A stretch of DNA of 26,476 bases from Candidatus Kerfeldbacteria bacterium (GTDB taxonomy: Bacteria > Patescibacteriota > Patescibacteriia > PEXW01), in contig CAIPSZ010000035.1 in assembly GCA_903867845.1 (NCBI GenBank), positions 1 to 26,476 of the forward strand. Direction: 5' to 3'. Below, in pieces: positions 21,488 to 26,476 of the stretch. A model generated the notes under the pieces. It made no database searches, was not told the origin of the DNA, and saw only the letters and a program-made list of their open reading frames with translations. The first letter of the stretch is position 1; each line of letters starts with the position of its first letter. A program made the translations under genes and the position numbers.

Positions 21488-21637
21488 TCAGTCACGCTCT
21501 TCGATAATGGGCCTGCGATGCTTCTGCTTCCGCCTGTAGTCTTTGCCATGCGGCTGGACCTTTGGCGGCTTCTGCGGCACCGGGATTCGGCCAGGTTTTT
21601 TTATTCCCTTGAGCGAATCGGGTTTTTTCTTTCCCAC
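21488..21637 (-). CDS. 49-aa basic Lys/Pro/Arg-rich small protein
   Basis: aggagg RBS plus GTG; MGKKKPDSLKGIKKPGRIPVPQKPPKVQPHGKDYRRKQKHRRPIIEERD; upstream TTGACA-N16-TACACT. Confidence 0.7.
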   Translation of the reverse strand: MGKKKPDSLKGIKKPGRIPVPQKPPKVQPHGKDYRRKQKHRRPIIEERD

Positions 21638-21943
21638 GTGTTCCTCCTTTTGTTTGAACCAAGTAGTGTAGCAGAAATATATACTATGTCAATACATAAA
21701 ATAAAATGTCGTCCTTTTTTTCTCCCGACGGCTAGGATTGTTTGTTTAGCAATTGCTATACTGCTGTTCACGTACTACGGCAGCAGCTAGCTGGCGATAG
21801 AGAATGTTTCTCACTCCACGGAGCTCTTCATCGAGAGACGTGGGCTAACCAGCGAGAGGGCTTAACCAAACAAGTAACCTCGTCATGGCAGCCAAGGTAT
21901 TCGCTGCTATGAGGAGGTTCTGTCATTGCTGACAGAACTTCAA

Positions 21944-22015
21944 GGTGCTGTGTAGATGTTCCTACCGACTTTCGTCATGAGGAACTTCTGTTTCTAGGCC
22001 GTCTACTCGGCGCCG
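21944..22015 (-). repeat. Stop-proximal pseudoknot-like element, copy 1
   Basis: GCCG-A-GUAGA-CGGC-CUAGAAACAGAA-GUUCCU...AGGAAC-A-UCUAC, then hairpin 21917-21938. Confidence 0.85.
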
Positions 22016-22025
22016 ACTGTCTGCC

Positions 22026-22811
22026 CTAAGCGGAGATACGATCCAGGGAAGCCCGGGTATCGTAACCCACTTCTAATCCAGCCATGAACACATGATGAAG
22101 TATCTCCTCAAGGAACTTGGTTAAGTCCTTGGAGAGCTCATTATCACCATTCACGGTGTTTGCAAGGAAAGTGTGAACGGCGTTCTGACTGATAGAGCGG
22201 ACAGGAGGCATCTGCAACGAAAGCTGCAAAAATGAGACCAGCCGAGTACGTTTGTCTGACTCATCTTCGTAGAGCTCCCGCTGCTTTGCCTCCGACTCAT
22301 CAAAGGTGAACAACACAGTGTACTCGCCGGTTAGGTTATCGCGAACAATCGCGATCCTATCCCAGCGAATTTCACTGGCGCTACCCTTGGGAGTTACTGT
22401 GGGCGTACTAGGCATAGAAATATCCTCCACTTTTGTAGGTTTAGGTTGGCGTTCTTTCACGCTAAGCGAGCGGAGTATTCTCACCGTGTCTGGACTAAAC
22501 TTGTCTTCAGACACGTGAATGTCCAACTTCAACCATAGTTTCGGGGCCGAAGAGTTACCGATGATTTGGATTCCGGGACATTCCCGCTGCATCCATTCCA
22601 CTAGCGCTCGCCCAAGCGATTCGCCTTTGTAGTACCCATCAAGCAGGACGATGTCTGGCTCTTCTTGCTTTACAAGCAGGGTCGCTTCGTTAAATGTCTT
22701 TACATCTTGTACTTTGCAAAATGTAAAATCTTTCAGCGACTCCGCAAATGCTTCAAGAAAGCGCGCGCCGTAGGTCGTGGCTTCGTCGTCAACGATTAAA
22801 ACTTTCTTCAT
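22026..22811 (-). CDS. Orphan response-regulator receiver-domain protein with unknown C-terminal region
   Basis: KVLIVDDE, PDIVLLDG, IIGNSS; own promoter TTGACA(22881-22876)-N17-TATGCT. Confidence 0.8.
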   Translation of the reverse strand: MKKVLIVDDEATTYGARFLEAFAESLKDFTFCKVQDVKTFNEATLLVKQEEPDIVLLDGYYKGESLGRALVEWMQRECPGIQIIGNSSAPKLWLKLDIHVSEDKFSPDTVRILRSLSVKERQPKPTKVEDISMPSTPTVTPKGSASEIRWDRIAIVRDNLTGEYTVLFTFDESEAKQRELYEDESDKRTRLVSFLQLSLQMPPVRSISQNAVHTFLANTVNGDNELSKDLTKFLEEILHHVFMAGLEVGYDTRASLDRISA

Positions 22812-23020
22812 TTTTCAACCCTCTCTATTTCTTTTTCTTTGTTTAACAGGGAAGCATATACAAGCTTTGAAATATTGTCAAGACTTTCCGACTAATTAGG
22901 TAAAAAAGGGGCTAATCTTAGCGATGTATCAATGCGAAATTTGTTATTATTTAGGAATAATATTGACATTATCTTATCCACAGCGTATACTGGAAATATC
23001 GTCGGAAATTATCGACATAT

Positions 23021-23761
23021 ATGGAAATACCAGAATTACTTGCGGTTTTCGGCCTAAACGAGAAAAAAACCAGTATCTACCTCGCCGCCCTAGAAATGGG
23101 CCCATCTTCCGCATTGGCCCTGGCTGAGCGAGCAAATATTAAACGAACGACCGTATACGACCTTATTGATGAGCTGAAACGCTTAGGGTTAATTACTGAG
23201 ACAATTCGGGGGAAGCGAGCGCGGTATGCGGCAACCGACCCTGATCGGCTGAAAGACCTGGTACGGCGACAATCTCTTGCCTTGGAAGTCCTCCTCCCCC
23301 AGCTCAAGGCGCTCTACAACGTCCCCGGGGTGAAACCAGGGGTCCGCTACTTCGAGGGTATCGCTGGAGTACAGGCCGCCCTTGAGGACACGCTCACCGC
23401 GCAGGACAAAACCCTCCTTGGAATCCTCTCCATGGAAGACCTCTACGAAACTATTGGTGAAGCGTACATGGAAGACTACGTGAAGCGCCGTATTGCAATG
23501 GGGTACAAGCTCCGAGTCGTTCGATCGAAAGAGAAAGAAGTTGCCAAGCGGTGGCCATCGAGCAAGAAGGAGAACCGCGACCGCCGGTACGCACCAAAAG
23601 GGTACGTCTTCGGCATGACGCAGTACGTTTACGACAATAAGGTCTTGCTGCTCTCGAGCCGCAAAGAAAACTTCGCCATGGTCGTGGAGAGCGCAGACTA
23701 CGCGCGGAACCAGCGACAGCTCTTCGAGGCGCTCTGGCAGGTGAGCCAGCCAGCACTGTAA
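23021..23761 (+). CDS. TrmB family transcriptional regulator
   Basis: FGLNEKKTSIYLAALEMG, wHTH IKRTTVYDLI, VRYFEG, YDNKV. Confidence 0.9.
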   Translation: MEIPELLAVFGLNEKKTSIYLAALEMGPSSALALAERANIKRTTVYDLIDELKRLGLITETIRGKRARYAATDPDRLKDLVRRQSLALEVLLPQLKALYNVPGVKPGVRYFEGIAGVQAALEDTLTAQDKTLLGILSMEDLYETIGEAYMEDYVKRRIAMGYKLRVVRSKEKEVAKRWPSSKKENRDRRYAPKGYVFGMTQYVYDNKVLLLSSRKENFAMVVESADYARNQRQLFEALWQVSQPAL

Positions 23762-23813
23762 ATAAAGTAAAATAGAAAAAACACCCAGTTATTCACTAAG
23801 TGCTTTTTACAAA

Positions 23814-23883
23814 GTGCTGTGTAGATGTCCCTACCGACTTTCGTCATGAGGAACTGCTGTTGCCACGTTGACTACCTCAACGT
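23814..23883 (-). repeat. Stop-proximal pseudoknot-like element, copy 2
   Basis: P1 replaced by ACGUUGA/UCAACGU around GGUAG; P2 GUUCCU/AGGGAC; terminator 23775-23803. Confidence 0.85.
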
Positions 23884-24095
23884 CTGACCATTGCAGCGAA
23901 CTCATCTGGTGTAATGATGCGGAAATCTAGGTCGAGGTATTCACGGTGGGAATCTTCCTCCATGACCTGCCTAAATTCTTTTTCATGTTCCGCATCGTAG
24001 GCGAGTCCAGCGACAACCCTACCTGTTCGAAACCAATATTTTGCTGTTTCGGGGTTATTGGTCAGAACCGTACTATCATTTAGAAAACAGTACAT
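23877..24095 (-). CDS. Hypothetical 72-aa acidic protein
   Basis: aaggag RBS before ATG 24095; MYCFLNDSTVLTNNPETAKYWFRTG... Confidence 0.7.
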   Translation of the reverse strand: MYCFLNDSTVLTNNPETAKYWFRTGRVVAGLAYDAEHEKEFRQVMEEDSHREYLDLDFRIITPDEFAAMVRR

Positions 24096-25294: not shown

Positions 25295-25305
25295 GGAAGC
25301 GCTGG

Positions 25306-25458
25306 CTACCGCTTGGTCCCAGTTGGAACGAAGATGTGCCGGCGTTCCAGGGCACGCTGCCCCGCGGGAACGGAGCCAAAGTAGCGGCCATCCCACGCAC
25401 AGTGCGCCTTCCGCAGCAGCCGAGTGGCTTGCTGCTCGAGCAATTTTCGAGAAATCAT
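25306..25458 (-). CDS. Hypothetical 50-aa basic protein
   Basis: agggagg RBS; MISRKLLEQQATRLLRKAHCAWDGRYFGSVPAGQRALERRHIFVPTGTKR. Confidence 0.65.
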   Translation of the reverse strand: MISRKLLEQQATRLLRKAHCAWDGRYFGSVPAGQRALERRHIFVPTGTKR

Positions 25459-25554
25459 TTTTACCCTCCCTTTCATTTTTTCCCAGGTAACCACCCCTAT
25501 CCCTGATTGCCTTGGAGAAAAACCCGTGTATTTATACTCTCAACGGGTGTTCGA

Positions 25555-25607
25555 GTAGGGATTTGGATTAATTGGTCCACTTCTGTTGCCAAGCTTTCCC
25601 CAGGCTC
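25555..25607 (-). repeat. Stop-proximal pseudoknot-like element, divergent copy 6
   Basis: GAGCCU-GGGGA-AAGCUU-GGCAACAGAA-GUGGA..UCCA-AA-UCCCU; same spacing, compensatory pseudoknot helix. Confidence 0.6.
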
Positions 25608-25613
25608 CGTTGT

Positions 25614-25703
25614 TTACAGCCACCTATGTATCGCTTCGGCGATGAGGCAGAGAACAACAACCAGTATGCATGCTACTGGGATCCAGCCACGACTGTATTT
25701 CAT
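25614..25703 (-). CDS. 29-aa single-TM peptide
   Basis: Not in the ORF track. ggtggtg RBS; MKYSRGWIPVACILVVVLCLIAEAIHRWL. Confidence 0.6.
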   Translation of the reverse strand: MKYSRGWIPVACILVVVLCLIAEAIHRWL

Positions 25704-25816
25704 TTTTCACCACCTTCCATACAGGTTTAAAAACAGTTAGTCTTTTTAGTTGAAGTATTGGAAATACTTTCTTCAGATGAAGTCCCGTTACATTTACACT
25801 CAAAACGGGTGATTGA

Positions 25817-25881
25817 GTTGTAGATGTTCTTCCGTCTTCGGCCAGAAGAACTTGCTGCGCCACGCCATCTACTAGGCGCCG
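25817..25881 (-). repeat. Stop-proximal pseudoknot-like element, copy 5
   Basis: CGCC-UAGUAGAU-GGCG, GUUCUUC/GAAGAAC P2, AUCUAC; overlaps the UAG UAG double stop. Confidence 0.8.
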
Positions 25882-26399
25882 TTGAGTTCCGGAAACAGAC
25901 GAGAGCGTTGCATGGCCATAAACCAATCCTTTACGAGTGGCGCGTCCTGCTGCTGGTTGCCTTCAACGAGTAGATTTCTCTCCTCATCGAAATGCGCATC
26001 CAGTCTGCAGTTTCGTGCTTCTTCGTAGGCTACTTTATAGTCTGCGCAGTGACTCGCTTCTCGCACCAGGCTCAACAGAGCGGAGATCCAATCACGGTGA
26101 TGATCGGAATCAGTGCAAATCACCGTCCGGATTCCGAAGTTCGAAGCCGTAAGGGCAAATACCAGGCCAACTGGTAGTTCTTCCTTCGGAGACGCAATCC
26201 AGTCTGCCATTACGCCTCTGTACTTCCCGACCGGCATGTGCAAATCGGTCAATACCGCGTCGAACTCGCCATGCTGGTGGATTAACAGTTTGCGAGCTTC
26301 AACAATATTGTCCACTGCAACTACCGCAAGGCCGTGCACTACCAGCTTCTGGGCGGAAGCGATGTTCCGCCGTTGGTCATCAATTACTAGTACCTTCAT
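25872..26399 (-). CDS. Orphan receiver (REC)-like protein
   Basis: KVLVIDDQ, FDAVLTDLHMP, ICTDSDHH; aggag RBS; promoter TTGACA(26476-26471)-N16-TATACT. Confidence 0.8.
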   Translation of the reverse strand: MKVLVIDDQRRNIASAQKLVVHGLAVVAVDNIVEARKLLIHQHGEFDAVLTDLHMPVGKYRGVMADWIASPKEELPVGLVFALTASNFGIRTVICTDSDHHRDWISALLSLVREASHCADYKVAYEEARNCRLDAHFDEERNLLVEGNQQQDAPLVKDWFMAMQRSRLFPELNGA

Positions 26400-26476
26400 T
26401 GCAAACTCCTTTTTCAAATTTTTAATGATCATTTTTCTTTAACAGCGAAGTATACGGCTTTACAAAATAGTGTCAA

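Follow-up and report, generated by a model that had tools for sequence, protein, structure and literature searches.

The last part of a 26,476-nucleotide (nt) contig from a Candidatus Kerfeldbacteria bacterium (CAIPSZ010000035.1, assembly GCA_903867845.1; the whole contig is referred to as the window) is a lineage-specific accessory island of about 5.6 kb in a Patescibacteria chromosome, in which six genes are followed by copies of one element of about 75 nt. We consider it an even call whether this island is a hyperplastic region of autonomous modules, anchored by TrmB-family regulators and receiver-like (REC) proteins and comparable to the promoter-early stem-loop (PeSL) regions of phage T4. 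Two divergent receiver-like/TrmB gene pairs form the core of the island and enclose five small, unrelated cargo open reading frames (ORFs). Under this reading, the element, which is predicted to fold into an H-type pseudoknot, would be part of the boundary through which the cargo is exchanged.

The genomes of Patescibacteria are tiny and contain few mobile elements that can be recognised, which leaves little indication of how accessory genes are gained and exchanged. The locus described here provides a concrete architecture for such gene flux, comprising one-gene modules, a strongly conserved 3′ boundary common to them, TrmB regulators and a site that is empty or variably filled among sister species. 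Were the boundary to act both as a functional RNA and as a recombination substrate, the island would be a chromosomal, integrase-free counterpart of the phage PeSL regions, and a phylum for which hardly any RNA motifs have been described would gain one. A bolder proposal, which we find rather doubtful, is that the element belongs to a type of structured RNA not described before, an H-type pseudoknot that abuts the stop codon and has a conserved GGCAACAG linker. As a 3′-end module, it might cleave itself or sense ribosomes and border swappable cargo in TrmB-anchored Patescibacteria loci, with RNA function and cassette exchange forming a single integrase-free gene-capture system.

Module anatomy and the fold of the shared element

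The window is contig C35 of genome G000 (964 kb in 195 contigs, about 91% complete). C-numbers denote contigs of this genome, G-numbers genomes and L-numbers homologous loci or contigs, L013 being the G008 locus. G002, G003, G005 and G006 belong to the same genus as G000, and G008 belongs to another genus of the same family; the compared genomes are thus different species or genera, with 61–80% amino acid (aa) identity between their tig products. All eight minus-strand ORFs reported in an earlier, model-generated note on this DNA exist (49, 261, 72, 55, 190/195, 50, 29 and 175/186 aa), and each has a GGAG-type Shine–Dalgarno (SD) sequence 5–9 nt ahead of its start codon. The only plus-strand gene is, as that note stated, a TrmB gene (TrmB246; PF01978, 45.8 bits against a cut-off of 25.6). 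Several TTGACA promoters had also been noticed, and we found four near-consensus sigma-70-like sites (10–11 of 12), located before s49, REC261, TrmB246 and REC186, together with weaker sites preceding s72 and s55. In total, 12 promoter-like sites were observed, compared with 4.0 ± 2.4 in shuffled sequence. Repeat comparison bore out the similarity of the leaders of REC261 and REC186, and the same leader occurs in G008 and L015.

The element is present in five strong copies (e1–e5), which score 66.8–103 bits (E values from 1e-17 to 1e-28) with a covariance model built from these five copies, and in a diverged sixth copy (e6), which follows the 29-aa gene; the shared 3′ element proposed in the note is thus real. 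Each copy is followed by a hairpin. The proposed modular architecture, as gene, element and hairpin, holds for six genes; the 50-aa gene has a hairpin only, and the 49-aa gene is part of the backbone. Outside the island, no copy was detected in the 964-kb genome by BLAST or with the covariance model. A 13-bit match on C165 was discarded as chance.

On the sense strand, the unit consists of hairpin A, a conserved linker (GGCAACAG in most copies), hairpin B, a single A, and a strand pairing with the loop of hairpin A, and it ends in a variable hairpin C followed by a U-containing run. In the predicted H-type pseudoknot, the GUAGA loop of hairpin A pairs with a UCUAC strand just past hairpin B. 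Stems A and B both covary, and the pairing of the two stems and the pseudoknot is complete in eight of the nine annotated copies, e2 retaining four of five pseudoknot pairs. The loop and the tail occur in three versions, GUAGA/UCUAC (eight copies), UAAUAC/GUAUUA (L027) and GGGGA/UCCCU (e6), whose strands do not pair across versions. The sense strand also contains five G–U pairs, which would be C–A mismatches on the opposite strand. When the island was scanned against Rfam 15, the best matches were to unrelated families at chance level (17 and 12 bits; E values of 0.53 and 8.4).

Within the island, the element lies 0–24 nt past the stop codon of each of the six genes. In all eight canonical copies checked, a stop codon lies 0–24 nt upstream of the UAG in the loop, and in six of them (e3, e4, e5, G008 L013:9916–10000, L015 and L031) this UAG is in frame with the upstream ORF (binomial p = 0.02, the copies not being independent). 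The loop UAG is itself the stop codon in e3 and G008, and a tandem second stop codon in e5. The covarying pairings and the sense-strand G–U pairs fit a transcribed pseudoknot in the 3′ untranslated region (UTR) better than a double-stranded DNA site or a bottom-strand hairpin of the attC type.

The fold and its strand preference bear on the possibility that the island is a site-specific cassette system, in which the element would be a folded single-stranded DNA site, similar to attC, for an unrecognised recombinase or for the Xer-type enzyme of the genome. As in attC arrays, small unrelated ORFs are arrayed in one orientation with a structured, covarying repeat abutting their stop codons, and a Xer-type recombinase is encoded on the same contig. 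However, this gene (728–1699), the only PF00589 gene in the genome, lies 20 kb away and is of the XerC/XerD/XerA type, scoring 134.7 bits with TIGR02249, whose cut-off is 265; an integron integrase (IntI) is absent. The aligned copies have no R″ (RYYYAAC) or R′ (GTTRRRY) boxes, nor R/L boxes in general, and they fold into two short hairpins with a pseudoknot rather than one long bulged hairpin. The strand favoured by the G–U pairs is the coding-sense one, whereas attC sites adopt their fold on the bottom strand. The presence of an integrase next to the array is not required of a cluster of attC sites lacking integron integrases (CALIN). Integron cassettes are mostly promoterless and are expressed from a common Pc promoter; several island modules, by contrast, have promoters of their own, near-consensus before REC261 and REC186. 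Furthermore, the element is conserved in sequence across genera and stably tied, as a single copy in other genomes, to orthologous genes. We therefore set aside the likeness to integron cassettes that the note had drawn, and regard a site-specific cassette system as quite unlikely.

Returning to the hyperplastic reading, we regard nearly every minus-strand gene as a self-contained expression module. A promoter of its own, or transcription entering from upstream, is followed by a leader that is rich in A and has a strong SD sequence, then by the ORF, the element and a hairpin terminator. The element would most likely be transcribed as the 3′ end of the messenger RNA, fold into the pseudoknot and act after transcription, as a candidate 3′-end stabilisation or processing signal. 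As an alternative candidate role, it may link the arrival of the terminating ribosome, which would melt hairpin A, to the fate of the RNA. The boundary of about 75–150 nt formed by the element, the terminator and the next leader is repeated within 4 kb and could therefore also serve as homology that travels with the modules. ORFs would then be duplicated, swapped or deleted when such boundaries undergo homologous recombination or gene conversion, as in T4-type PeSL cassettes, with no dedicated recombinase taking part.

Island boundaries and the element in relatives

The island comprises positions 21695–26476 of the window, a gap of about 27 nt and positions 1–830 of contig C127, and is set between the promoters of s49 and nfo. 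From its left edge at 21695 it runs off the end of C35 and resumes on C127 with TrmB2, followed by nfo. C127 was placed after C35, and the gap sized, by collinearity with the REC–TrmB intergenic region of G008, whose REC–TrmB–nfo arrangement is matched by TrmB2 at the start of C127. Homology between G005 and the window ends at 21693, in the −35 hexamer of the s49 promoter, and the left junction is 21694|21695. The empty site of G005 reads ...ATGTCAAT|GCTATACT... at the left junction and ...ATGTCAAT|GCTATACTACCCCCATG(nfo) overall; its two halves are about 5.6 kb apart in G000, and the outer junctions fall between two promoter hexamers.

The same site is empty in G002, G005 and G006, which have the order tig–(s49)–nfo, and is occupied in G003 by a 6.5-kb insert of six unrelated ORFs, including an AAA_28 protein and a ThiF-like protein; the island is therefore accessory. 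G008 has the order tig, CYTH-AAA_28, s43, element–REC178, TrmB, nfo, and no remnants of the CYTH-AAA_28 gene, which follows tig in both G003 and G008, were found within the island. Among the 13 genomes of the order, the REC186 type is found in two, as is the element. By contrast, s49 belongs to the backbone rather than to the cargo, because it is kept next to tig in G005 (82% aa identity) and G008 (a 43-aa ORF in the same position, 40%). The expectation, raised in the note, that tig should be followed by clpP and clpX does not apply, since tig is normally followed by nfo in this genus; clpP is located on contig C59.

Family searches of the island proteins revealed no integrase, transposase or phage families. 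With flanks (tig/s49 and nfo) that are conserved and enclose nothing or differing content in relatives, and with no mobility genes inside, the site resembles the minimal mobile elements or variable islets known between conserved flanks in Neisseria (discussed in PMC3787668), and exchange through flank homology is plausible. It differs in its internal modular repeats, which are not part of that concept, and natural transformation and flank-mediated replacement would be putative in this lineage. Alternatively, the island might be the remnant of a phage or other mobile element, a hyperplastic region left behind in the chromosome. Orphan ORFs bounded by promoters and terminators do resemble phage hyperplastic regions (PMC2839356), and the sec195 gene has an atypical GC content of 61%. 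However, PHROGs and PADLOC scans of the island proteins yielded only weak receiver or helix–turn–helix (HTH) matches, genes for structural proteins or integrases are absent, viral contigs gave matches at chance level only, and REC–TrmB–nfo is chromosomal and syntenic in another genus. These observations make a phage remnant very unlikely.

In other genomes, the element accompanies REC orthologs (G008 and L027) and s72 orthologs (L015 and L031), as a single copy. Its sequence is 80–90% conserved across genera and, next to these orthologs, more conserved (about 80–85%) than the coding DNA (68–73%). A covariance search that covered 60 relatives and all 13 genomes of the order identified G008 as the only other carrier; a match in G059 was rejected because it lies within a coding region. 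A pattern scan of contigs from GTDB genomes returned no matches, and one of metagenome contigs returned only the G008 contig and L015. A pattern scan of viral contigs gave three chance-level matches without hairpin A. REC homologs with 44–48% identity (L024, L026 and L028–L030) and 14 GTDB loci have plain terminators and no element, except for a degenerate copy in L029. This copy (L029:208–277), on a hydrothermal-vent contig, has hairpin A, a GGCAACAGAAG linker and a hairpin B that is short, but it lacks the strands of the pseudoknot; it is followed by a terminator just upstream of the REC homolog. On the same contig, a promoter-region repeat of about 55 nt (1–60 and 296–350) flanks a unit of about 240 nt, whose end is formed by this degenerate copy and its terminator.

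This distribution also bears on whether the element is a selfish repeat, of the repetitive extragenic palindrome (REP) or miniature inverted-repeat transposable element (MITE) kind, that inserts after genes and is moved by Y1 (HUH) transposase-like proteins of the genome. The conserved GTAG beside a palindrome is reminiscent of REPs, and two Y1_Tnp-like ORFs with an HVH motif are present on contigs C19 and C125. Nevertheless, the copies are confined to the island and, unlike the REPs of systems with REP-associated tyrosine transposases (RAYTs), have no genome-wide counterparts, the Y1_Tnp-like ORFs lying on other contigs. The GTAG is replaced by other sequences with the pairing kept, orthologs in other genera are followed by a conserved copy of the element, and the actual REP-like repeat of the genome is a different palindrome. 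We find a selfish repeat scarcely credible.

Breakpoints, mosaic copies and proposed module exchange

From nfo through TrmB and REC as far as the element, G000 and G008 remain collinear, with homology breaking off at 25817, where e5 has its 3′ edge; the stretch of approximately 4.1 kb that begins with REC261 and ends with s29 is peculiar to G000. The gene s72, together with its element, occurs in three arrangements: convergent with TrmB246 in the window, divergent from a TrmB246-type regulator beside nfo in L015, and as the second gene after TrmB in L031. Conversely, the gene divergent from the TrmB246-type regulator is REC261 in the window and s72 in L015, and in L031 it encodes a non-REC protein of 180 aa. 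Promoter and CCCTGTTAAA leader are nevertheless unchanged between the window and L015, where they precede the s72 homolog, despite the different cargo.

Within the island, three pairs of boundary sequences are duplicated: 24119–24268 and 24438–24588 (74.5% identity over 153 nt), the terminators of e5 and e6, and the hairpins after e1 and s50. The last pair is the reused hairpin stem that the note had spotted (21911–21938 and 25267–25294, 86% identical), and the e6 terminator is a duplicate of that after e5. The element copies also appear to have recombined. Copy e1 matches e4 at 26 of 27 positions in the 5′ half and 36 of 50 in the 3′ half (Fisher p = 0.014), and e2 at 18 of 29 and 44 of 48, respectively (p = 0.0025), in tests on about 30–50 sites whose paired positions are not independent. 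Judged by these matches, e1 is a mosaic of e4 (5′ half) and e2 (3′ half), a pattern that places the breakpoint between the linker and hairpin B.

A shuffling of modules is characteristic of the PeSL cassettes in the hyperplastic regions of T4-type phages, in which small, mostly orphan ORFs are bounded by a repeated stem-loop terminator and a sigma-70-like promoter motif, and the repeated motifs offer homology for the insertion, deletion or replacement of ORFs with no dedicated recombinase (Arbiol et al. 2010, PMC2839356; Comeau et al. 2014, PMC4122927). In the island, repeated terminator-plus-promoter motifs likewise surround small ORFs, as a hairpin or terminator followed by the next leader or promoter, and the comparison with phage hyperplastic regions that the note had offered is apt. 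The island differs in that it resides in a Patescibacteria chromosome rather than a phage, its boundary adds a pseudoknotted element of about 75 nt at the stop codon, it is anchored by TrmB/REC pairs, and counterparts of the mini-circles and close-relative exchanges of PeSL would be putative in it.

Comparison of the post-tig locus among relatives, the check that the note had suggested, divided its proposal of exchange by recombination at the shared element: gene content differs, and the internal breaks (25817, the s72 contexts and the mosaics) support it, whereas the outer breakpoints lie elsewhere. Indeed, the empty-site comparison with G005 revealed no element, repeat or duplication at the outer junctions, and this is one of several points that weigh against a hyperplastic region. 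Between different species or genera, ordinary indels and divergence could yield the same breakpoints, and the sites underlying the mosaic tests are few. Covariation cannot distinguish RNA from folded single-stranded DNA of the sense strand, and both the transcription of the element and the transcript 3′ ends are putative. The hairpins after e1 and e5 have no good U-tracts and may not be terminating. Finally, no palindromes resembling the TrmB operator were found ahead of the cargo modules, so that TrmB control of the cargo is unproven.

A rival reading is an ordinary lineage-specific regulatory locus, in which the element is the functional 3′-UTR RNA of a small regulon and has no role in gene flux; a few old tandem duplications would account for its copies, and ordinary indels for the differing gene content. 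Consistent with this, the element has no connection with the outer junctions and has stayed with REC and s72 orthologs across genera, and all comparisons are between distant genomes. Moreover, in the single public DNA run in which the locus was found (a lake-water metagenome, Logan contigs, about 7× depth), no structural variants or alternative joints were seen. Such a locus would not readily account for the mosaic copies with discordant halves, the three separate duplicated boundary pairs, one 3′ end common to six unrelated ORFs, or the three positions of s72 relative to TrmB. We consider it somewhat unlikely.

TrmB regulators, island genes and other repeats

Each of the two TrmB genes is divergent from a receiver-like gene (REC261/TrmB246 and REC186/TrmB2). 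TrmB2 (C127:63–830) and the G008 TrmB (L013:8466–9257) share 91% protein identity, whereas tig and REC share 61% and 64% between the same two genera. As the DNA identity is only about 75–80%, TrmB2 appears from this comparison to be under unusually strong purifying selection, and recent horizontal transfer was rejected. An imperfect palindrome immediately precedes each TrmB start (window 22992–23020; C127:35–60; L013:9262–9285, opposite strand; L027:640–660; L015:~685–712), and TrmB2, G008 and L027 share a site resembling TTGNCGA-N5-TCGNCAA, which is a likely TrmB auto-operator. The divergent partner gene and the palindrome just upstream of its own start, found for both genes, are as in the TrmB family (PF01978). 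However, there is no sugar-binding context, the partners are receiver-like or small orphans that vary between genomes, and the regulation here is putative. No paper in the literature searched pairs TrmB with Patescibacteria or the Candidate Phyla Radiation. A third TrmB-family paralog (C181:5027–5791) is 28% identical to TrmB246 and has no element copy nearby.

The features of the locus are listed in Table 1.

Table 1. Features at the end of the window, with coordinates on the forward strand.
Feature	Position	Strand	Remarks
REP-like palindrome (TCCTGAAC-N-GTTCAGGA core)	21429–21456	.	Between convergent tig and s49; outside the island; probably a bidirectional terminator
s49, small basic protein, conserved	21488–21637	−	Backbone gene
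s49 promoter, TTGACA-16-TACACT	21665–21694	−	Island junction directly after the −35 hexamer
ORF-less island-specific stretch, 220 nt	21695–21916	−	Flanked by the hairpin after e1 and by the s49 promoter
Hairpin C of module 1, stem GTTCTGTCA	21917–21940	−	Without a following U-tract
Element copy e1	21942–22016	−	103.1 bits; arms fully paired
REC261, receiver domain and ~130-aa C-terminal region	22026–22811	−	PF00072, 21.6 bits
Divergent promoter region, REC261 (−, 22881–22853) and TrmB246 (+, 22963–22991)	22853–22991	.	REC261 leader holds CCCTGTTAAA
TrmB246, TrmB-family winged-helix regulator	23021–23761	+	36% identity to L015 TrmB
s72-module intrinsic terminator	23776–23808	−	14-bp stem and T-run
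Element copy e2	23811–23885	−	83.4 bits; hairpin A stem covaries (ACGTTG/CAACGT)
s72, small protein	23877–24095	−	Homologs in L015 and L031, both carrying the element
s55-module terminator	24172–24193	−	Directly after e3
Element copy e3	24194–24268	−	94.3 bits; loop UAG is the s55 stop codon
s55, orphan ORF	24255–24422	−	No family matches
sec195-module terminator-like hairpin	24490–24512	−	Covaries with the e3 hairpin
Element copy e4	24513–24589	−	96.6 bits
sec195/190, signal-peptide protein	24594–25181	−	61% GC
Hairpin after s50	25271–25294	−	Same stem as in the hairpin after e1
s50, orphan ORF	25306–25458	−	Only island module without the element; hairpin alone
e6 (diverged sixth copy) and terminator	25514–25616	−	Linker GGCAACAGAAG kept; pseudoknot pair GGGGA/UCCCU
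s29, small hydrophobic peptide, orphan ORF	25614–25703	−	Followed by e6
Hairpin after e5	25784–25809	−	No good U-tract
Element copy e5	25815–25882	−	66.8 bits; overlaps the REC186 stop codon
REC175/186, receiver-like	25872–26399	−	Conserved DSDHHRDW motif; ortholog of G008 REC178, 64%
REC186 promoter, TTGACA-16-TATACT	26449–26476	−	Contig ends at the −35 hexamer

REC261 and REC186 score below the Pfam cut-off for PF00072 (21.6 and 23.4 bits against 30.2), and their assignment as receiver-like proteins is supported by structure and motifs: a structure-based search places REC261 among receiver-domain proteins, and the REC186 family shows no variation in its DD...D(L)HMP motifs. The stretch at 21695–21916 has a strong predicted fold, no credible ORF and no homolog among the compared loci. 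Word-index searches for homologs of s72 and sec195 returned only the queries themselves. In language-model features, sec195 looks like a small outer-membrane β-barrel of the KdgM/OmpL type, a likeness that is unexpected in a bacterium thought to have no outer membrane; the surroundings of the gene have about 50% GC. A motif that occurs 5–11 times in each of the long proteins P0020–P0023 (600–880 aa) matches the first ~25 residues of the s72 family, and s72 may be a single-repeat relative of this repeat-protein family.

The genome also contains a separate family of REP-like palindromes, GTGTC-TCCTGAAC-N3-4-GTTCAGGA-TCTC, with about 14 good copies, located at 2305, 2340, 20003, 20041 and 21434 in the window and on contigs C39, C108, C114, C131 and C178. 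The gene tig has an inverted pair on its upstream side and a single copy on its downstream side, and a copy forms the end of one contig. In the run, the palindrome is shared by several contigs of other origin, with loose ends at 21423–21462. The two Y1/HUH transposase-like ORFs (C19:313–861 and C125:2212–2664; 150–182 aa; MPEHVH and MPNHVH; PF01797, 25 and 19 bits) are not near the island and may be RAYT-like partners of these palindromes.

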